Part shown: one piece after another, positions 48,245-63,609 of the stretch | Numbering within the stretch: the stretch's first letter is position 1 | Layout of the letters: the number at the start of each line of letters is the position of its first letter | Assembly: GCA_047639475.1 (NCBI GenBank) | Contig: JBLIOD010000007.1 | Location: 18,308 to 82,307 of the forward strand | Reading direction: 5' to 3' | Length of the DNA stretch: 64,000 bases | Source of the DNA: Gammaproteobacteria bacterium | Lineage (GTDB): Bacteria > Pseudomonadota > Gammaproteobacteria > Arenicellales > Poriferihabitantaceae | The notes under the pieces: model-generated | Told to the model about the DNA's origin: nothing | Database searches by the model: none | What the model saw: the letters and a program-made list of their open reading frames with translations, nothing else | Position numbers and translations under genes: made by a program

Positions 48245-49588
48245 ATGAGCATGAGTGACAAACCCCAAGATAAACCCAATACACTTCCAAGACAGGCTTG
48301 GACATTTGACGAATACACCAATTCTGAAATTCGTCGTGCAGCGGCAACCGGCATATACGATATTCGTGGTGGTGGTAGCAAACGTAAACTACCTCACTTT
48401 GACGACTTAACTTTCTTAGGCGCGTCGATGTCACGTTACCCGCTTGAAGGATACCGTGAAAAGTGTGATACCAAAGTGGTTCTAGGAACCCGTTACGCTA
48501 AGAAGCCAATTGAATTGGACATTCCGATCACGATTGCTGGAATGAGTTTTGGCTCATTGTCAGGCGGTGCCAAAGAAGCACTGGGTCGCGGTGCAACGGC
48601 GGCGGGTACGTCTACCACAACCGGTGACGGCGGTATGACTGAAGAAGAACGAGGACATTCGTCTAAACTTGTATATCAGTACTTACCTTCACGTTACGGC
48701 ATGAACCCCAATGACCTGCGTCGCGCTGATGCGATTGAAGTAGTTGTCGGGCAAGGCGCTAAGCCAGGCGGCGGCGGTATGTTGCTAGGGCAGAAAATTT
48801 CTGACCGTGTTGCTCATATGCGTAACTTGCCAAAAGGCATCGATCAACGCTCTGCGTGTCGTCATCCTGATTGGACGGGTCCAGATGACCTTGAGATCAA
48901 AATACTTGAACTACGCGAAATTACTAATTGGCAGGTACCTATCTACATTAAAGTAGGGGGTGCACGTCCCTATTACGATACAGCACTGGCGGTTAAAGCC
49001 GGCGCTGACGTGGTAGTGCTTGATGGTATGCAAGGCGGTACTGCGGCGACGCAAGAAGTATTCATTGAGCATGTTGGTCAGCCAATATTGGCTTGTATTC
49101 GCCCTGCTGTTCAGGCGCTGCAAGACTTAGGCATGCACCGAGAAGTACAGTTAATTGTTTCTGGCGGAATTCGCAACGGTGCTGACGTCGGTAAAGCATT
49201 GGCACTGGGTGCGGATGCAGTCTCTATTGGAACTGGTGCTCTGATTGCGATTGGTGATAACGACCCTAAGTGGGAAGCTGAGTACAACGCATTAGGTTCA
49301 ACTGCGGGCGCTTACGATGACTGGCATGAAGGCCAAGATCCAGCAGGCATTACTACGCAAGACCCAGATTTGATGAAGCGTTTCGACCCTGAATTAGGTG
49401 GTCGCCGTTTGTCTAATTACCTTAAGGTAATGGCGCTTGAAGTTCAAACTATGGCCCGCGCATGCGGAAAAAGCCATGTATTGAATCTTGAGCCAGAAGA
49501 TATGTGTGCATTAACTGTTGAAGCCGCCGCGATGTCTGGCGTACCTTTAGCGGGCACTAACTGGGTTCCAGGAAAGGGTGGTTATTAA
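48245..49588 (+). CDS. mgsC: FMN-dependent glutamate synthase domain-2-like subunit, N-methylglutamate synthase subunit C-like
   Basis: 447 aa with GltS FMN-domain blocks (ITIAGMSFGSLS, GQGAKPGGGG, DGMQGGTAA, SGGIRNGADVGKALALGADAV). Confidence 0.75.
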   Translation: MSMSDKPQDKPNTLPRQAWTFDEYTNSEIRRAAATGIYDIRGGGSKRKLPHFDDLTFLGASMSRYPLEGYREKCDTKVVLGTRYAKKPIELDIPITIAGMSFGSLSGGAKEALGRGATAAGTSTTTGDGGMTEEERGHSSKLVYQYLPSRYGMNPNDLRRADAIEVVVGQGAKPGGGGMLLGQKISDRVAHMRNLPKGIDQRSACRHPDWTGPDDLEIKILELREITNWQVPIYIKVGGARPYYDTALAVKAGADVVVLDGMQGGTAATQEVFIEHVGQPILACIRPAVQALQDLGMHREVQLIVSGGIRNGADVGKALALGADAVSIGTGALIAIGDNDPKWEAEYNALGSTAGAYDDWHEGQDPAGITTQDPDLMKRFDPELGGRRLSNYLKVMALEVQTMARACGKSHVLNLEPEDMCALTVEAAAMSGVPLAGTNWVPGKGGY

Positions 49589-56081: not shown

Positions 56082-56777
56082 TTAAAGCGTGCCGTCCAAA
56101 TCTGCACGTGCTCGGCGTAAATGTTCAGTCATTATTTCCATGGCTCGCGGCGCATCGCGGCGCTTGATAGCGCTTAACATGGCGCGATGTTGCATGTTGT
56201 AATGATCTATGGCTTCGGGTGTCAGTACATTGTCTTTGCGTGCAGTCCATTGGGTATGGCTGCGTATATCATTGATGCGTTGATACATCCAAATCAGCAA
56301 CGGGTTTTGAGAGCATTGCGCTAATATCAGATGGAAGGTTTCGTCTGCTATTGAAAATGCATCCGAATCATCTCGAGTTCTTTCCAATTGGGTGACCGCA
56401 TCCTCTAGTTGGCGTAGGTCACGGTTACTGGCGTTAGTCACTGCCAGCTTAACTATATAAGGCTCGATAGCGATACGCGTCTGAATTAACTCCATTGGGC
56501 TGGTGTCTTCAGCAATGTCGTCCTTTTGGAATTGCGGATTATAAATCGCAAAGGTTCCGCTGCCGGTTTTTATTCTGACTAGATGAGATTTTTCTAAGCG
56601 CTGCAAAGCGGAGCGTATTGTGCCACGTGCTACATTATAGGCGGCCGCCAGTTCTCTCTCTGGGGGTAATCGTTCATCATATTGATAGTGGCCGCTAAGG
56701 ATGGCTTCCTTTAGGTGTACGTATACACCTGTTGAGCCTTTAATGACGTGACTGAGTTGTGGTTCTTCTATGTTCAT
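56082..56777 (-). CDS. GntR family transcriptional regulator (FadR/FCD-type C-terminal domain)
   Basis: 231 aa with an N-terminal wHTH (LPPERELAAAYNVARGTIRSALQRLE) and a helical FCD-like C-domain. Divergent from the second cassette. Confidence 0.85.
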   Translation of the reverse strand: MNIEEPQLSHVIKGSTGVYVHLKEAILSGHYQYDERLPPERELAAAYNVARGTIRSALQRLEKSHLVRIKTGSGTFAIYNPQFQKDDIAEDTSPMELIQTRIAIEPYIVKLAVTNASNRDLRQLEDAVTQLERTRDDSDAFSIADETFHLILAQCSQNPLLIWMYQRINDIRSHTQWTARKDNVLTPEAIDHYNMQHRAMLSAIKRRDAPRAMEIMTEHLRRARADLDGTL

Positions 56778-57004: not shown

Positions 57005-58348
57005 ATGGCAATACCAACTTCAGCGAAATACTTAATCATAGGAGCAGGCATACATGGTCTTAGTACTGCTTATCATTTAGCGCTTAACTTAAAGGCGCAA
57101 GGTAAAGGTGACGGTAGTGATATACTTATTATAGACAAAGATTCTATTGCAGCCGGCGCTTCGGGTATTGCTTGTGGTGTAGTACGTAATAACTACTTTC
57201 AACCGGCAATGCGTGAGTTAATGGCGCAATGCGTGGAAGTATGGGAAAGCGACATGGAAGCTTTTAGCTACCATCCAGTTGGTTATATGCAGATAAGCCC
57301 AGAAAGCATGCATGATGATGTTGCCACTATTGCGAAACAGCAAAAAGAAATTGGTTATGAATCTACCTTCATCGAAGGTGAGAAAGATTCAATGGATTAC
57401 ATGAAAGGCATCTTTCATGATTGGCAGGCGAAAGGCATCACGTCTGTTCTACATGAAAAGAAGGGTGGTTTCTCTAACAACACTAAGGCAATGTACGGCT
57501 TAGCGAAGAAAGCAGAAGGTGAGGGCGTTCGTATTCAAGCAGGCGTTACCGTCACTGGCTTTGAGCGTGATAGTGGTTCTGAAGCAGTGCGTGCGGTTAT
57601 AACCGATAAAGGCAACATCCAGTGTGATCAATTGGTTATCGCACCTGGCCCGTGGGCCAAGCAAATGTGGGATATGTTAGACCTACAAAAAACAGTAGAT
57701 ATCAAGGCTGCTGACGGCACCATTCATACAGATATCCCGATGTGGATTTACTGGTCTTTACAAGAAGGCACTTTGGGCGTTGATCCAGAAATGCAAAAGA
57801 CCAACGATGGCAAAGCACCGCCTGTTATTCACGTTGACTCAAATGAGCCACTATATTCAGACCTTGACGGTAGCTTAGTAACAGATGAAATGTGGGGTAT
57901 TTACTACAAGCCTGATTTTCACTTTAACGGCATTCAAGGCGGCGCAGCACCGTTCCCCATTACCACGCCTCCAGACGAAGTAGCGGTTGATCCATACGGC
58001 GTTGATTCGCCTGATTTCGTGGTGGGCGAAGATTTCGCACACATGTGGGTGTCTGCATTGGCGCATTGTCAAAAGCGTTTTGAAGGCCAAATGGTTAACT
58101 ACAGCAGTGAGCCATCGGGTGGAATTGGTTCATTTACGCCAGATAGCTTCCCAGTATTCGATCAATTCGTTGATAACGTCTACCTAATCGCTGATTCAAA
58201 TCACGGTTATAAGATGATTGGTGTAGGAAAATTAGTCGCACAAGAATTATGTGGTGAACCTAGCGCATTGTTAGAACCTTTTAGATTCTCGCGATATGCG
58301 GAAGGTAAGCTTCACCCTGTATCAAGTAGCCCGTTCCCATGGAGCTAA
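57005..58348 (+). CDS. DAO-family FAD-dependent oxidoreductase (sarcosine oxidase beta / PuuB-like)
   Basis: 447 aa with an N-terminal Rossmann YLIIGAGIHGLSTAYHLA, a GASGIACGVVR block and a C-terminal SNHGYKMIGVG block. Confidence 0.8.
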   Translation: MAIPTSAKYLIIGAGIHGLSTAYHLALNLKAQGKGDGSDILIIDKDSIAAGASGIACGVVRNNYFQPAMRELMAQCVEVWESDMEAFSYHPVGYMQISPESMHDDVATIAKQQKEIGYESTFIEGEKDSMDYMKGIFHDWQAKGITSVLHEKKGGFSNNTKAMYGLAKKAEGEGVRIQAGVTVTGFERDSGSEAVRAVITDKGNIQCDQLVIAPGPWAKQMWDMLDLQKTVDIKAADGTIHTDIPMWIYWSLQEGTLGVDPEMQKTNDGKAPPVIHVDSNEPLYSDLDGSLVTDEMWGIYYKPDFHFNGIQGGAAPFPITTPPDEVAVDPYGVDSPDFVVGEDFAHMWVSALAHCQKRFEGQMVNYSSEPSGGIGSFTPDSFPVFDQFVDNVYLIADSNHGYKMIGVGKLVAQELCGEPSALLEPFRFSRYAEGKLHPVSSSPFPWS

Positions 58349-58444
58349 CGGCGTTGTCAGAGTAGTTAAGTAATTTGTTCCAAAAAAATCAAAAATAGTC
58401 GCAACTGTAAAGTTGCAAGTTTATAAATCAAGAGAGGAGAGAAA

Positions 58445-59932
58445 ATGGCTAATGCCCAAGATTCAACCGACCTAGAACAAACCGTTAACGCCCTAGGGCG
58501 TGCAGAGTTGGTTAAGCAGGTTCGTGAGAAAATTAAAGAAACCGGCGTAACTTATATTTACTTCCAATTTGTATCTGTAACGGGTCGTATCGTTGGTAAA
58601 GGTATCCCTGCAGATCATTGGGAGCGCATCGCTGAGAAAGGTTTCCAGTTGGTCTACGGTTCTACTGCTAACCTATTTGTTGATCGTCATGGCGATTATA
58701 TTGGTTACGGTCCAGAAGCTTCAGAGTTGGTGGGTATTCCTGACCCAGAGACTTTCTGTCAGTTACCTTGGGATAAGCGAATCGCACGCGTTTTCTGTAC
58801 TTGTTACCGTAACCGTGAAGAGAAAGTTAACCCAGGTCAACACTTAACATCAGACTGTCGTGGTAACTTAAAGCGTATCGACGCTGAGTTCCAAGAAAAG
58901 CATGACATGCACATGCGCTGCGGTACTGAGCCAGAAATGATGTGGTTAACGCTAGACGAGGACAAGAAAGTCAATGGCGGCGTAACCAAGCCAAATTGTT
59001 ATCACATTGACCAATTCGAAGAGCTACGCCCTGCCTTCATGCAAGTGATGGAGTATGGCCAAGCGATGGGCTATGACATGATCCAAGGTGATCACGAAGA
59101 TGCCCCGGGTCAGTTAGAACTAAACTGGCAGTTCGATGATGTATTGAAAAATGCGGATCGTCTAACCACTTACCGTCAAATTTGCGCACAGGTTGCACGT
59201 GAAAAAGGCTTACACGCTTGCTTCATGTCCAAGCCTTTCATGAATGTATCGGCTTCGGGTTGTCACCATAACGTATCGTTATGGACAGGCGGCGAACTGA
59301 AAGTGAATAACTTACATCAAGAAATTCGTGGTGGTATGGATGACGTGTTCTCATACAGAGAAGGCGGCCACAACCACTTTATGCCAGTTCCAGAACTTGA
59401 CCAGTACAAGCCAGGACCTATTGGTTTACATTCAATCGGTGGTGTTATCAAGCATTTACCGGCGATGACGGCTATCGGTTCTTCAACGGTTAACTCTTAT
59501 CGCCGCTTATGGGATACCGGTTTCTGGGCACCTATCTTCGCTGATTGGGGCTACCAAAACCGTACCTGCGCCTTGCGTGTATCGGCGCCGGGTCGTTTTG
59601 AGTATCGCTCTGTTGACTCAATGGTTAATCCTTACTTGATGGGCGGTGCGATTTATAAAGCGTTCGAAGATGGTATTGAAAACAAGTTGGATCCAGGCGA
59701 CCCTGAAGAGCGTAATATTTACGCTGCAATGGAAGCAGGTAAAGACGTTAAGAAGTTACCAATGACATTAGGCGACGCTTTGACTGAGTTGAAGAATGAC
59801 GAAGTCATTAAGTCTTCAATGCCTGACGAAATGTACAGGGTTTATCATCATTACAAGAATGACGAGTGGGAGCGTTTTAACCACAGCGTGTCTGATTGGG
59901 ATATGGAAAACTACATCGATTGCTTGCCATAA
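58445..59932 (+). CDS. Glutamine synthetase-like ATP-dependent ligase, divergent paralog of the gmaS-like gene
   Basis: 495 aa with a strong RBS (AGAGAGGAGAGAAAATG) and GS blocks (GTEPEMMW, GDHEDAPGQLELN, ASGCHHNVS, NSYRR, RFEYRSVD). It has an N-terminal extension and an internal insertion relative to the 435-aa paralog. Confidence 0.8.
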   Translation: MANAQDSTDLEQTVNALGRAELVKQVREKIKETGVTYIYFQFVSVTGRIVGKGIPADHWERIAEKGFQLVYGSTANLFVDRHGDYIGYGPEASELVGIPDPETFCQLPWDKRIARVFCTCYRNREEKVNPGQHLTSDCRGNLKRIDAEFQEKHDMHMRCGTEPEMMWLTLDEDKKVNGGVTKPNCYHIDQFEELRPAFMQVMEYGQAMGYDMIQGDHEDAPGQLELNWQFDDVLKNADRLTTYRQICAQVAREKGLHACFMSKPFMNVSASGCHHNVSLWTGGELKVNNLHQEIRGGMDDVFSYREGGHNHFMPVPELDQYKPGPIGLHSIGGVIKHLPAMTAIGSSTVNSYRRLWDTGFWAPIFADWGYQNRTCALRVSAPGRFEYRSVDSMVNPYLMGGAIYKAFEDGIENKLDPGDPEERNIYAAMEAGKDVKKLPMTLGDALTELKNDEVIKSSMPDEMYRVYHHYKNDEWERFNHSVSDWDMENYIDCLP

Positions 59933-60085
59933 AGCCAGCTCGGGTACATAGGAGCAACAACTGAAATCGGTGCTGTCGCAGCAATGCGGCCGCACCATCC
60001 ATCGTGATTCTTAACTTATCTGTCCTCGGACAGAGGGTCACGTTCAACCTACACAATTTAATATAAACCAGAGAGGATTAGCTTT

Positions 60086-61021
60086 ATGTGTGGAATCGCA
60101 GGACTTATCCATAAGGGTAAAAGCTCAGATATAGGCACAGAAATGACGTCTATGCTGCAGTCCCTTAAACACCGCGGGCCTGATTCAACAGGCTACGCGT
60201 TATACGGTACACCCGATGACAGTCAGTACGTGATGCGCTTTATTTGCGCAGAACAAGAAGACATGAAATCGGGTTTTGAAATTCATCAAGAAGTTATCGA
60301 GCGTCAAGCAGAAGTAGACAGGCGTTTACTTTCTTTGGGTGCAAAGATAATTGATAAAGACATCGCGACAGAATATGCGCACCGTTACACTTTTTCTTAT
60401 GACGGCGATATGCGCAAGCTAGCTGACTATGTAGAAGATGTCGAAGGTGCTGAGATTTTATCAATCGGTCGTGGTCTTGAACTAATCAAAGACTTGGGCG
60501 ACGCCAGTGTTGTTTGCGATCAGTATTCTTTAAACGGCTTTCAGGGCACGCATGCAATTGGTCACACCCGAATGGCGACTGAATCAGATATTGATATCCG
60601 TTCAGCTCACCCCTATTGGGCATACCCATTTAACGACGTATCAGTAGTACACAACGGTCAGTTGACCAATTACTGGACTTTCCGTCGCGCCATGGAGCGT
60701 AACGGTCACCGTTTCGTTTCTAACTGTGACTCTGAGCTGATTGCGGTGTACATCGCTGATCGCATGGAGAAAGGAGATGAGCTTGAAGAAGCTATGAACC
60801 GCAGTGTCAATGAATTGGACGGTGTATTCACCTATTTAGTAGCCACTAGCGATCAGCTAGGCATGGCTAAAGACGTAATGGCGGCAAAACCAATGGTGCT
60901 CTATGAAAGCGATACGTTCGTTGGCTTGGCATCAGAGGAAGTAGCAATCCGTAGTATTTTCCCCGAGCGTATTAAAACTTGGGACCCATATGAAGGCGAG
61001 GTAAGAGTATGGCAGGCGTAG
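60086..61021 (+). CDS. Class II (Ntn) glutamine amidotransferase-like subunit, divergent mgsA paralog
   Basis: 311 aa with MCGIAG nucleophile Cys and HAIGHTRMATES and VVHNGQLTN blocks. Confidence 0.8.
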   Translation: MCGIAGLIHKGKSSDIGTEMTSMLQSLKHRGPDSTGYALYGTPDDSQYVMRFICAEQEDMKSGFEIHQEVIERQAEVDRRLLSLGAKIIDKDIATEYAHRYTFSYDGDMRKLADYVEDVEGAEILSIGRGLELIKDLGDASVVCDQYSLNGFQGTHAIGHTRMATESDIDIRSAHPYWAYPFNDVSVVHNGQLTNYWTFRRAMERNGHRFVSNCDSELIAVYIADRMEKGDELEEAMNRSVNELDGVFTYLVATSDQLGMAKDVMAAKPMVLYESDTFVGLASEEVAIRSIFPERIKTWDPYEGEVRVWQA

Positions 61022-61851
61022 AGAAAACATCCCATGAAATGGGACTGCATGCCGAGCAGTTAAGCGGCAGAACTCAGCAGCGCTTTTTTAGCGCATCTGA
61101 AGAAGAGAACTTCACTTACCCATGGGGCATGGAAGTTGACTATAACAAGTCAGCGACTATCGATGCCAAAGACATGTTGCCCACTGAAATCAATATCAAG
61201 ATTCGTGAGTTGATGTTAGACGGCGTGGGTTCAATTACTTTGAACAACCCAATGTCTCAACATGCGATAGGTGTGGGTATTTTGAATCGTTTGAACCTGA
61301 CTATCGACGGCAGCTTAGGCTATTTCGGTTGTGGTTTGATCGACGGTCCAAACGTGACTATCACAGGCCGCGTTGGTTGGTCTTGCGCTGAAAATATGAT
61401 GGCGGGAACCGTTATTATCGAAGAGAACGCAGGTTCTACTTTCGGTGCGGCTATACGCGGCGGTGACTTAGTTTGTCGTGGCGACGTCGGTTCACGTACT
61501 GGCATCGACCAAAAGGGCGGCACCATTATTGTGGGTGGACGCACTGGCGCTTTCTCTGGTTTCATGATGCAACGTGGCCGCATGGTTATTTGCGGCAATG
61601 CAGGCAAGAACTTAGGCGACTCGATGTACGACGGCACCATTTTTGTTGGCGGTGAAGTTGAAGATTGTGGTGTTGACTGTGTCCCTGGCGAATTGAATGA
61701 AGTTGACGTTAAGTGGCTAACGCATAAGTTAGGCATGTACAACATTAAGCCAGCCTGCGGAAGCATCGACAAAATGCAAAAATTCGTATCAGGCAAGCAG
61801 CTTTGGAACTACGATAACTTAGAGCCTTCTGAGAAGAAGCTAGTTCTTTAA
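61009..61851 (+). CDS. GXGXG-motif beta-helix subunit, divergent mgsB paralog
   Basis: 280 aa. The start overlaps the previous gene by 13 nt. GXGXG turns (ITGRVGWSCAENMMAGTVIIEENA...) and an ~55-aa N-terminal extension relative to the 223-aa paralog. Confidence 0.75.
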   Translation: MAGVEKTSHEMGLHAEQLSGRTQQRFFSASEEENFTYPWGMEVDYNKSATIDAKDMLPTEINIKIRELMLDGVGSITLNNPMSQHAIGVGILNRLNLTIDGSLGYFGCGLIDGPNVTITGRVGWSCAENMMAGTVIIEENAGSTFGAAIRGGDLVCRGDVGSRTGIDQKGGTIIVGGRTGAFSGFMMQRGRMVICGNAGKNLGDSMYDGTIFVGGEVEDCGVDCVPGELNEVDVKWLTHKLGMYNIKPACGSIDKMQKFVSGKQLWNYDNLEPSEKKLVL

Positions 61852-61875
61852 CTGACCCTATAAAGAGGAAATATT

Positions 61876-63213
61876 ATGTCTACTAAAAGAGATACCAACC
61901 ACCTAGGTCAGAGTTTTATCTTTCCGCCTGCGGTGATGGATGATATCCATGTAAAAGCAGAGTTAGGCCGCTATCGTATGCGTGGCTTTTCTTTGTTCAA
62001 GAAAATCCCATCTTGGGACGATTTGACTTTCATGCCCGGTACGCTAACGCGCTTCGTAATCGAAGGTTATCGTGAAAAGTGCTTAACCAAGACCATTATC
62101 GGTCCTATGTGTAAGCGACCATTGGAACTTGATATTCCTGTTTACATCACAGGTATGAGTTTCGGTGCACTGTCTTATGAAGCAAAAACTGCGCTAGCGC
62201 GCGGCGCCACTATGGCTGGAACAGCAACTTGTTCTGGTGAAGGCGGCATGATTCCTGACGAGCGTCGTTATTCAGAGAAGTGGATGTACCAGTGTATCCA
62301 ATCTCGTTACGGCTTTAACCCTAGCCATTTACGTTTAGCTGATTGCGTTGAATTTTTCATCGGGCAAGGCTGTAAGGTGGGTTTAGGGGGGCACTTGATG
62401 GGCCAAAAGGTAACGGATCAAGTAGCTGAAATGCGTTCATTACCTGCGGGTATCGACCAGCGTTCACCTGCGCGTCACCCTGATTGGTTAGGTCCTGATG
62501 ATTTGGCACTGAAGATCAACGAAATTCGCGAAGCGACTGATGGTCAGATTCCAATTCAGCTTAAATTAGGTGCAGCACGTGTGTATGATGACGTGCGTAT
62601 GGCCGCTAAAACAGGTCCGGATTCAATCTACATCGACGGTATGGAAGGCGGCACAGGTGCTGGCCCTCACTTAGCGACTGAAGAAACCGGCGTTCCTGGT
62701 ATTGCCGCGATTCGTCAAGCGCGTCGTGCAATTGAGGACGTGGGCAAGTCGGGTGAGATTTCACTGGTTTATGCTGGCGGTATTCGTAACGGTGGTGACT
62801 TAGCAAAAGCATTGGCTCTAGGCGCTGACGCGGTGGCGATCGGTCACTCAGCTTTGATGGCATTGAACTGTAACAAAGACATCGACGAGGCTGATTTCCC
62901 GAATGAAATGGGCGTAGAAGCTGGTCATTGTTATCACTGTCACACAGGTCGTTGCCCAGTGGGTGTTGCGACTCAGGATCCAGAACTGCGTAAGCGTCTG
63001 AACCCTGATGCGGCAGCCGAGCGTGTATATAACTTCTTACACACTTTAACGATCGAAGCGCAGTTGTTAGCACGTGCTTGCGGCAAGACAAACATTCATT
63101 CATTAGAGCCAGAAGATATTGCGGCTTTAACAATGGAAGCGTCTGCGCTAGCGCAAGTTCCATTAGCAGGTAGCCAACATACAGTTGGTCGCCCTGATAT
63201 GACACGCTTCTAA
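61876..63213 (+). CDS. FMN-dependent GltS domain-2-like subunit retaining a GltS-type Cys motif, divergent mgsC paralog
   Basis: 445 aa with blocks ITGMSFGALS, DGMEGGTGAGP and AGGIRNGGDLAKALALGADAV, plus CYHCHTGRCPVGVATQDP. Confidence 0.8.
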   Translation: MSTKRDTNHLGQSFIFPPAVMDDIHVKAELGRYRMRGFSLFKKIPSWDDLTFMPGTLTRFVIEGYREKCLTKTIIGPMCKRPLELDIPVYITGMSFGALSYEAKTALARGATMAGTATCSGEGGMIPDERRYSEKWMYQCIQSRYGFNPSHLRLADCVEFFIGQGCKVGLGGHLMGQKVTDQVAEMRSLPAGIDQRSPARHPDWLGPDDLALKINEIREATDGQIPIQLKLGAARVYDDVRMAAKTGPDSIYIDGMEGGTGAGPHLATEETGVPGIAAIRQARRAIEDVGKSGEISLVYAGGIRNGGDLAKALALGADAVAIGHSALMALNCNKDIDEADFPNEMGVEAGHCYHCHTGRCPVGVATQDPELRKRLNPDAAAERVYNFLHTLTIEAQLLARACGKTNIHSLEPEDIAALTMEASALAQVPLAGSQHTVGRPDMTRF

Positions 63214-63222
63214 GAGGATTAT

Positions 63223-63609
63223 ATGATGAGTGAAAATGTCGATAAGTTTATTGAAGAAGACGGTTTAGATTCTAACCGTGAGCAAGAGATCGGTCAGCAC
63301 ATTGGTTATCGTTACGACGTTAACTTGGTGCCTGACATGGATCGCTGCCCGCCTTTCTTAACTAAGTACATGGATATTATGGGCTGGACTGACCTTAATT
63401 GGTTGGAAGACGTTCACATGGGCTATGAAGAAGGCAGACCGGCCGTATTTGATAGAAATATCAATGGTTGGGTGCAGATTCCAGAGACGATTGATTTGCC
63501 GGATAACCAGCAAGATCGAGACATGATTGCACGTGAGTTGCTAATCAAGTTTCAAATGTCTAAAGACCACCCAATGGTGGACTTAGTAAAGGCATACAAG
63601 AAGTTCTAG
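63223..63609 (+). CDS. Orphan acidic 128-aa protein, function unknown
   Basis: Starts 9 nt after the FMN-subunit stop (RBS AAGAGGA) and is followed by a strong terminator. No TM segment or signal peptide, and no family recognised. Confidence 0.5.
   Translation: MMSENVDKFIEEDGLDSNREQEIGQHIGYRYDVNLVPDMDRCPPFLTKYMDIMGWTDLNWLEDVHMGYEEGRPAVFDRNINGWVQIPETIDLPDNQQDRDMIARELLIKFQMSKDHPMVDLVKAYKKF

Follow-up and report, generated by a model that had tools for sequence, protein, structure and literature searches.

Does the flavin mononucleotide (FMN) subunit of a second, N-methylglutamate-synthase-like gene cassette hold an iron-sulfur (Fe-S) cluster, and what would such a cluster do in an enzyme of a type assumed to be flavin-only? 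This question is raised by a stretch of 64,000 nucleotides from a gammaproteobacterium of the order Arenicellales (contig JBLIOD010000007.1, positions 18,308 to 82,307 of the forward strand; hereafter the window), in which two cassettes each encode a protein with the Glu_synthase domain. The protein of the second cassette (P0001) has four cysteines in a segment that corresponds to the Fe-S ligand region of glutamate synthase (GltS), whereas its paralog (P0002), a canonical MgsC, has none there. Our analysis indicates that Cys332, Cys352, Cys355 and Cys360 of P0001 probably constitute an Fe-S site that was inherited from a GltS-like ancestor and is predicted to lie beside the FMN, as in GltS. 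The features on which this rests are the following (aa, amino acids).

61876..63213, + strand: FMN/synthase subunit of the second cassette (P0001, 445 aa); PF01645 Glu_synthase, 302.7 bits (cut-off 20.4)
62869..62982, + strand: four-Cys segment of P0001, residues 332-369; translation CNKD...GHCYHCHTGRCPVGVATQDP, ending CPVGVATQDP
62869-62871, 62929-62931, 62938-62940 and 62953-62955, + strand: codons of C332, C352, C355 and C360, respectively
62878..62928, + strand: 17-residue insert (335-351) between Cys I and Cys II; common to MgsC, absent in GltS and insert-free relatives
48245..49588, + strand: canonical alpha/gamma-type MgsC paralog (P0002, 447 aa); PF01645, the four positions being D/Y/W/D
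49250-49372, + strand: decayed motif segment of P0002; translation IGDNDPKWEAEYNALGSTAGAYDDWHEGQDPAGITTQDPDL

P0001 contains 11 cysteines in total (residues 69, 79, 119, 140, 157, 166, 332, 352, 355, 360 and 402). The first-pass annotation, made from the letters alone, had placed the four cysteines in the 445-aa FMN subunit and had described the paralog segment at 49250-49372 as free of cysteine. Translation of the open reading frame (ORF) confirmed the four residues, and the segment of P0002 reads exactly as it had been quoted, with no Cys in P0002 between residues 284 and 407. BLASTP gives 50% identity for the pair, with Cys332, Cys352, Cys355 and Cys360 facing Asp, Tyr, Trp and Asp. The insert specific to the family is present in both, as they align through the region with a single one-residue gap.

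In bona fide GltS alpha subunits, the ligands of the [3Fe-4S] cluster lie in a C-x5-C-x4-C-P-V-G-(I/V)-A-T-Q segment of the FMN domain. A PDB-wide phmmer search with P0001 returned only GltS large chains as close relatives (E-values from 5e-30 to 1.5e-25). In the phmmer alignment to Azospirillum brasilense GltS (2vdc/1ea0), residue 287 of P0001 pairs with chain residue 1057, and C332, C355 and C360 pair with residues 1102, 1108 and 1113, which we take to be the three [3Fe-4S] ligands of the crystal structure. C352 falls on GltS position 1105, the middle of C-x2-X-x2-C, which is not Cys in GltS; the GltB encoded by this same genome reads C/M/C/C, with Met at the middle ligand position, and other three-Cys relatives have Tyr or Ala. 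The GltS-type motif that had been claimed for P0001 is therefore only partly right. The three ligand positions are filled and followed by P-V-G-V-A-T-Q, but the literal, contiguous C-x5-C-x4-C spacing is absent because the 17-residue insertion (335-351) follows ligand 1, and a fourth Cys stands at the middle position.

The AlphaFold2 model of P0001 (65 sequences) has a mean predicted local distance difference test score (pLDDT) of 93.4, with values of 93-96 over residues 331-370, and includes a short helix at 341-345 inside the insert (pLDDT about 94). The top PDB matches of this model in Foldseek were GltS alpha FMN domains (TMq 0.70, root-mean-square deviation 3.4-3.6 Å, about 390 columns). 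GltS alpha subunits (GltB and ferredoxin-dependent GltS; PDB 1ea0, 2vdc, 6s6s, 1ofd and 7mfm) share with P0001 the PF01645 TIM-barrel fold, and their amidotransferase and GXGXG modules are present in cassette 2 as well. However, in cassette 2 the modules are on separate polypeptides and not on one chain of 1500 aa, P0001 is 25-28% identical to GltS, and the neighbourhood lacks genes for a GltD or ferredoxin partner. P0001 is not a GltS member, because the enzyme is encoded by three separate genes (NF008730 gives 128 bits against a cut-off of 1047) and lacks the three-Cys spacing. P0001 is homologous to the GltS FMN domain and to MgsC and would work like both, but it is a member of neither.

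Representatives of 50%-identity clusters from an exhaustive search with P0001 were aligned, which revealed three Cys patterns. The first, GltB-like pattern is C-x5-C-x4-C-P, where the middle position is taken by Tyr, Ala, Met or Ile. The second is C-x2-C-x2-C-x4-C-(P), with four Cys and no insert (e.g., P0140, P0144, P0145, P0151 and P0155), and the third, to which P0001 belongs, has four Cys and an insert between Cys I and Cys II. Among stand-alone GltS-like FMN proteins, all four Cys (CCCC) were found in P0001 and in the insert-free P0140, P0144, P0145, P0151, P0155 and P0170. The insert-free groups nearest to the insert-bearing family are those of the P0141, P0147 and P0155 type; P0141 (1031 aa), P0147 (1486 aa) and P0155 (652 aa) combine a Glu_synthase domain with the insert-free four-Cys motif and may be fused multi-domain forms. 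In addition, a third stand-alone Glu_synthase-domain gene was detected in the same genome (contig C51, L003:1108-2652, + strand, 514 aa). Its product has a hydrophobic N-terminus and a contiguous three-Cys motif, GCIQAMQCNKNTCPTG, of the first pattern, and looks like a membrane-anchored GltS-like FMN protein.

With the ligand cysteines of GltS kept, Fe-S cluster binding is the most economical reading of the site in P0001, in line with what had been proposed for the second-cassette enzyme. In ferredoxin-type sites, a 3Fe instead of a 4Fe cluster classically results when the central Cys is missing. Because the fourth position (C352) is a Cys in P0001, we infer that a [4Fe-4S] cluster is more likely than a [3Fe-4S] cluster.

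Relatives of P0001 were collected in a scan of one genome per GTDB species, which gave more than 590 stretches encoding such a protein; all locus counts refer to the best 80. The core operon of cassette 2 occurs across marine and soil Proteobacteria and beyond. The best 80 relatives are 87-96% identical to P0001, most of them with the core operon, and come from Gammaproteobacteria (Arenicellales, Granulosicoccaceae, SUP05/Thioglobus, Acidiferrobacteraceae and Pseudomonadales), Alphaproteobacteria (Dongiaceae, Rhodospirillaceae and Thalassospiraceae), one Burkholderiaceae metagenome-assembled genome (MAG), and MAGs of Acidimicrobiia and Acidobacteriota. A further cluster of 930 members, P0126, is 76% identical and may be of SAR11 origin.

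All four cysteines are invariant in 200 unique orthologs of P0001 from several phyla, and so is the CYHCH-x-GRC string, position 357 excepted (97% Thr). Other sites nearby are variable, with 10 different residues at position 351 and 9 to 11 at positions 342, 343 and 348 of the insert. Invariant columns make up 55% of all columns in this set, so that four invariant Cys would be expected by chance with a probability of about 9% (columns assumed independent). In a family alignment of 65 sequences (33-90% identical to P0001), which includes Cys-less MgsC sequences, C332, C355, C360 and P361 are at least 90% conserved, and this conservation in the deep family is stronger evidence for the Cys site than the invariance among orthologs. 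The FMN subunit as a whole is 87-96% identical across classes and phyla, compared with 62-89% for the ligase, amidotransferase, GXGXG and orphan proteins (57005-63609; L020-L099). Canonical MgsC is comparably conserved (84-87% between the copy in this genome and Rhizobiaceae). In one genome, G228, the cassette-2 FMN gene (L104, G228:C1:2892247-2893245) matches residues 8-340 only (387-aa ORF called, open frame 393 aa), and the Cys segment was not found in it; this gene may be truncated or frameshifted.

The history of the site was read from two maximum-likelihood trees of 67 and 42 rows (quick searches, with support from the Shimodaira-Hasegawa-like approximate likelihood ratio test, SH-aLRT). 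The insert-bearing proteins form one family (SH-aLRT 99), in which the cassette-2 sequences are a clade of their own (99 and 100 in the two trees), and P0001 lies outside the MgsC clade (support 100). The MgsC clade splits in two. All members of one subclade have four Cys; in the other, the four-Cys protein of locus L106 is sister to the Cys-less alpha/gamma MgsC (99). By parsimony, the Cys state changed once within the family, at the base of alpha/gamma MgsC, and the second counted change falls in an outgroup row. The four-Cys state is ancestral to the N-methylglutamate-synthase-like family and was lost once, in alpha/gamma MgsC. It was thus correct to say that P0002 has lost the motif, since the single change is placed at the base of its lineage, and P0001 shows the ancestral state. 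A single relic Cys occurs in some otherwise Cys-less MgsC proteins (CYYD in L107 of G266, DYFC in L108 of G419 and L109 of G283, DYWC in L136 of G411), a pattern suggestive of stepwise decay at a cofactor site no longer in use.

The Cys-less lineage includes MgsC of Sinorhizobium meliloti (L102) and of Aminobacter sp. SR38, the latter within a complete mgsABC-glnT-soxBDAG cluster. P0002 is 84-87% identical to genes of Rhizobium, Sinorhizobium, Aminobacter and Thioclava in mgsABC-glnT clusters; the genes of Rhizobium, Thioclava and a Paracoccus aminovorans plasmid were grouped with Cys-less MgsC by their identity to P0002 (81-87%) and not by motif. To our knowledge, the only purified N-methylglutamate synthase is the FMN-only enzyme of 'Pseudomonas MA' (Aminobacter), and a flavin-only enzyme from this source fits the Cys-less lineage. 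Alpha/gamma MgsC (P0002 and the proteins of Aminobacter, Sinorhizobium and Paracoccus aminovorans) resembles P0001 in its 50% identity, its insert, its three-subunit gene order and its linkage to a glutamine-synthetase (GS)-like ligase and methylated-amine genes. It differs in having D/Y/W/D in place of the four Cys, in forming a separate well-supported clade, and in lacking the orphan 128-aa gene of cassette 2; moreover, its ligase is a true member of TIGR03105, the GmaS family (670 bits for cassette-1 gmaS, versus 306 bits in cassette 2; cut-off 469.6 bits).

Four-Cys proteins are also found inside the MgsC clade. All 240 homologs listed for two query proteins of the four-Cys MgsC subclade keep the four Cys. 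Among the named members are those of Methylobacillus, Novimethylophilus kurashikiensis, a Methylophilaceae MAG, Methylibium, Pelomicrobium methylotrophicum, Leptothrix cholodnii, Paraburkholderia, and MAGs labelled Hyphomicrobium and Methylobacterium. These proteins have all four Cys, the CHHCHTGKCPVG core and an insert between Cys I and Cys II, as P0001 does, and presumably keep the Fe-S site. Unlike P0001, they have an insert of about 25 aa and sit in the MgsC clade; their clusters differ from cassette 2 in GmaS-family ligases, in soxB/soxA-family dehydrogenase genes (in L110), and in that no homolog of the orphan 128-aa protein was seen in the loci examined. In L110 (G417), soxB-like and soxA-like genes, a ligase with 622 bits for TIGR03105, mgsA and mgsB precede the four-Cys gene, and in L106 (G228), four-Cys mgsABC is followed by a ligase with 668 bits. 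This mgsABC-gmaS cluster sits 14 kb from the cassette-2 FMN gene of L104 in the same genome. In Aquabacterium olei pTB101 and Burkholderia sp. PAMC 26561, the order is ligase, glutamine amidotransferase (GATase), glxC and four-Cys FMN gene. Genes next to the Aquabacterium olei pTB101 cluster (L100, 277677-291029; glnT-GATase-glxC-FMN gene) encode an FAD-binding oxidoreductase, an LLM-class monooxygenase, a flavin reductase, an aldehyde dehydrogenase and a polyamine-type ABC binding protein, and the cluster may serve an amine other than methylamine.

Methyloversatilis universalis FAM5, the genetically characterised betaproteobacterial model, has the gene order gmaS-mgsABC-mgdABCD (PMC5023235); this order and its taxonomy suggest that its MgsC belongs to the four-Cys subclade. 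The motif had been put forward as distinctive relative to characterised MgsC, and this holds against enzymes of the alpha/gamma type, which are without it, but probably not against those of the beta type. As a mark of cassette 2 alone the motif was rejected, because the four-Cys MgsC subclade has it too, as does a P0132-type clade, the gene context of which is seen through one genome locus (L105). Since it is ancestral and shared with methylotroph MgsC, the Cys motif alone marks no new chemistry.

The partners of P0001 bear on what the cluster could do. The remaining genes of cassette 2 and its neighbours are as follows (FAD, flavin adenine dinucleotide; Ntn, N-terminal nucleophile).

60086..61021, + strand: class-II (Ntn) glutamine-amidotransferase-like subunit (P0003); PF13522/PF13537, starts MCGIAGL
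61009..61851, + strand: GXGXG beta-helix subunit (P0004); PF01493
58445..59932, + strand: diverged glutamine-synthetase-like ligase, 495 aa; PF00120, TIGR03105 306 bits, below the cut-off of 469.6
63223..63609, + strand: orphan 128-aa protein (P0005), last gene of the core operon; 78/80 loci
57005..58348, + strand: DAO-family FAD flavoprotein, facultative neighbour; PF01266, 28/80 loci
56082..56777, - strand: divergent GntR/FCD regulator; homolog 41-60% identical in other loci

Judged by its domains and gene order, P0001 is the predicted synthase (FMN, TIM-barrel) subunit of a second N-methylglutamate-synthase-like complex, consisting of GATase, GXGXG and FMN subunits. Its gene order with the GATase and GXGXG subunits matches that of MgsC, as the genes of P0001 and P0002 each follow a class-II amidotransferase gene and a GXGXG gene, and since the amidotransferases of both cassettes begin with MCGI, the N-terminal Cys nucleophile is kept. 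The genes for the GS-like ligase, GATase, GXGXG, FMN and 128-aa proteins are present in the 80 loci wherever the contig extends far enough; the 128-aa gene is absent from two, whose contigs both end within 250 bases of the FMN gene. The orphan protein P0005 has no Pfam or NCBIfam match and no usable one in a protein atlas, its single Cys is not conserved among 54 invariant columns, and its AlphaFold2 model (pLDDT 79) found no fold match above Z 3.4 among 48,161 PDB chains. A complex prediction for the FMN subunit and the 128-aa protein with FMN and 4Fe-4S scored 0.00, which bears neither way. The conserved core of cassette 2 showed no gene for a ferredoxin, a reductase or a GltD-like protein.

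The DAO gene, by contrast with the core, is facultative. DAO orthologs are 64-81% identical across the 28 loci that have one, and in 25 of the 59 loci with at least 2.5 kb of upstream sequence no DAO gene separates the ligase gene from the GntR gene directly upstream of it. FMN orthologs are present in 27 of 41 related genomes and DAO orthologs in 21; no DAO match was found in 10 of the 27 genomes with the cassette, and four genomes have DAO without the cassette. In two Poriferihabitaceae MAGs (L028:11140-16279 and L050:11515-16995), a sarcosine-oxidase-family (soxBDAG, MgdABCD-like) set follows the operon on its 3' side instead of a solo DAO preceding it, with matches to soxB, soxA and soxG in both and to soxD also in L050. 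Similarly, an Acidiferrobacteraceae MAG (L056:3328-8464) has soxB-like and soxA-sized genes 3' of the operon, of which only soxB was tested. The gene for trimethylamine N-oxide demethylase (tdm) is a frequent neighbour of the operon: tdm itself (NF053776, above cut-off) adjoins it in L074 and L041, tdm-like genes occur in 26 of the 80 loci, and dmmDABC is among the neighbours of cassette 2 in the window. The predicted N-demethylating flavoenzymes beside cassette 2 are of two interchangeable kinds, DAO and soxBDAG, and the operon is linked to trimethylamine N-oxide and dimethylamine genes. In one genome (G002), the genes of a DAO ortholog (90% identical) and of an MgsC-type protein (51% identical to P0001) are 6 kb apart on contig C223 (1863-3203 and 9218-10498), and no cassette-2 FMN ortholog was found in this genome at 89% completeness; DAO may also associate with the other cassette. 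Furthermore, in eight of the 27 related genomes with cassette 2, no paralog at about 50% identity accompanies it, which shows that cassette 2 can stand alone.

A comparable arrangement has been described in SAR11 strain HTCC1062, where SAR11_1304-1310 comprise sox, glnT, ..., gltB2, ..., amt (PMC3870248). The likeness to cassette 2 is one of gene order and annotation. Proteins 1305 and 1308 were detected by proteomics and were slightly lower under nitrogen limitation, while sox (1304) was strongly up (PMC3870248). If these genes are orthologous to those of cassette 2, the response separates DAO from the synthase.

From these observations a route for cassette 2 can be proposed. The ligase would make a gamma-glutamyl-(methyl)amide, from which the amidotransferase subunit would release the amine into a tunnel. 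The amine would next react at the FMN site with enzyme-bound 2-oxoglutarate or 2-iminoglutarate to give an imine or iminium, which FMNH2 would reduce to an N-methylated glutamate. DAO or a SoxBDAG-type dehydrogenase would then demethylate the product. In this route, the cluster would be an auxiliary one-electron relay and structural element that sets, holds or rescues the redox state of the FMN and gates the amidotransferase, a role to which we assign a probability of roughly 0.5. An obligatory, stoichiometric electron conduit is not expected, because the sister lineage lost the cluster and kept the pathway. Trimethylamine dehydrogenase offers an analogy, as a TIM-barrel flavoenzyme that acts on methylated amines with a [4Fe-4S] cluster next to its FMN; it differs from P0001 in being oxidative, of the old-yellow-enzyme type and a donor of electrons to electron-transfer flavoprotein, and no homology is claimed. 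GltS uses its [3Fe-4S] cluster as the final relay of electrons to FMN, and its glutaminase site is gated by reducing equivalents (PMC8097209).

Several points weigh against this auxiliary role. The putative Fe-S site of the cassette-2 clade is predicted from sequence, as is the clustering of the four thiols, from GltS homology together with CxxC and C-x4-C spacing; the four Cys could instead coordinate Zn. Loss of the site in one lineage is no proof that it is catalytically dispensable elsewhere, since the Cys-less enzymes could have changed mechanism. The FMN subunit is so strongly conserved (87-96%) that a demanding catalytic role would fit just as well. Finally, the amine substrate could be methylamine, dimethylamine or another amine.

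A second explanation is that the enzyme is a reductive, GltS-like synthase in which the cluster is the obligatory entry of electrons to FMN. The reaction would be gamma-glutamyl-methylamide + 2-oxoglutarate + 2 e- -> N-methylglutamate + glutamate, with electrons from a general ferredoxin or flavodoxin, from a GltD-like protein, or recycled from the downstream dehydrogenase, and newly formed glutamate would take up the amine nitrogen directly. The complete parts of GltS are kept (Ntn Cys nucleophile, GXGXG, FMN barrel and Fe-S ligands), the homologous cluster position feeds FMN in GltS (PMC8097209), and the conservation of the FMN subunit is extreme. In addition, the amide donor should always be at hand, because a GS-like gene is present in every locus with enough upstream flank, and the eight of 27 genomes with cassette 2 alone make self-sufficiency possible. 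However, the core operon shows no ferredoxin, reductase or GltD-like gene, four-Cys MgsC genes occur in otherwise canonical N-methylglutamate clusters, and the Cys-less sister lineage kept the same gene set. Moreover, N-methylglutamate synthase has been assayed from glutamate and methylamine without reductant. We therefore regard the reductive explanation as doubtful. Its broader form is somewhat more doubtful still: N-methylglutamate-synthase-like enzymes would be ancestrally [4Fe-4S] flavoproteins, the cassette-2 enzyme would be a reductive GltS-like 'methylamine GOGAT' that draws electrons through the cluster and converts gamma-glutamyl-(di)methylamide and 2-oxoglutarate to N-methylated glutamate and glutamate, and the textbook flavin-only, redox-neutral enzyme would be derived. 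If true, nitrogen from methylated amines would pass straight into glutamate in SUP05 and, if the genes are orthologous, in SAR11.

The four Cys might also hold no Fe-S cluster at all and be a structural Zn site, disulfides, or a relic that is still conserved. Zn can be bound by a CxxC plus two more Cys, the enzyme survived the replacement of all four residues in one lineage, and the hosts seem to us to be mainly aerobic marine bacteria, in which exposed clusters are a liability. On the other hand, three of the four Cys are exact positional homologs of proven Fe-S ligands, the C-x2-C-x2-C-x4-C-P of the insert-free relatives resembles a ferredoxin motif, and in most members of the loss lineage all four positions have decayed, with single relic Cys left in a few, as expected of a cofactor site abandoned as a unit. 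This makes a site of another kind unlikely. Least probable is that the adjacent DAO flavoprotein is a dedicated redox partner returning electrons from the N-methyl product to the synthase: DAO is the first operon gene here and in 28 of the 80 loci, but obligate pairing of DAO and synthase is disfavoured by the pattern of co-occurrence and substitution described above, sox and glnT/gltB2 of SAR11 change in opposite directions under nitrogen limitation (orthology by gene order and annotation; PMC3870248), and DAO has no Fe-S domain match, so the electron transfer that the first-pass annotation had suggested between the two was not borne out.

P0001 is probably an iron-sulfur flavoprotein in a very widespread, uncharacterised operon. 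In the literature covered, outside which many subscription papers lie, nothing was found on an Fe-S site in N-methylglutamate-synthase-type enzymes or on cassette 2. The Cys motif, being ancestral and common to methylotroph MgsC, identifies no new reaction by itself. If a [4Fe-4S] cluster is present, however, N-methylglutamate-synthase-type enzymes would not be generally flavin-only, as has been assumed from one purified alphaproteobacterial enzyme. If the cluster is real, the family would also contain a natural pair of enzymes with and without it, and thereby a test of the role of an Fe-S cluster in redox-neutral amine transfer. For the bacteria that carry cassette 2, an Fe-S cluster in this subunit would mean an extra iron cost for the use of methylated amines in iron-poor seawater.

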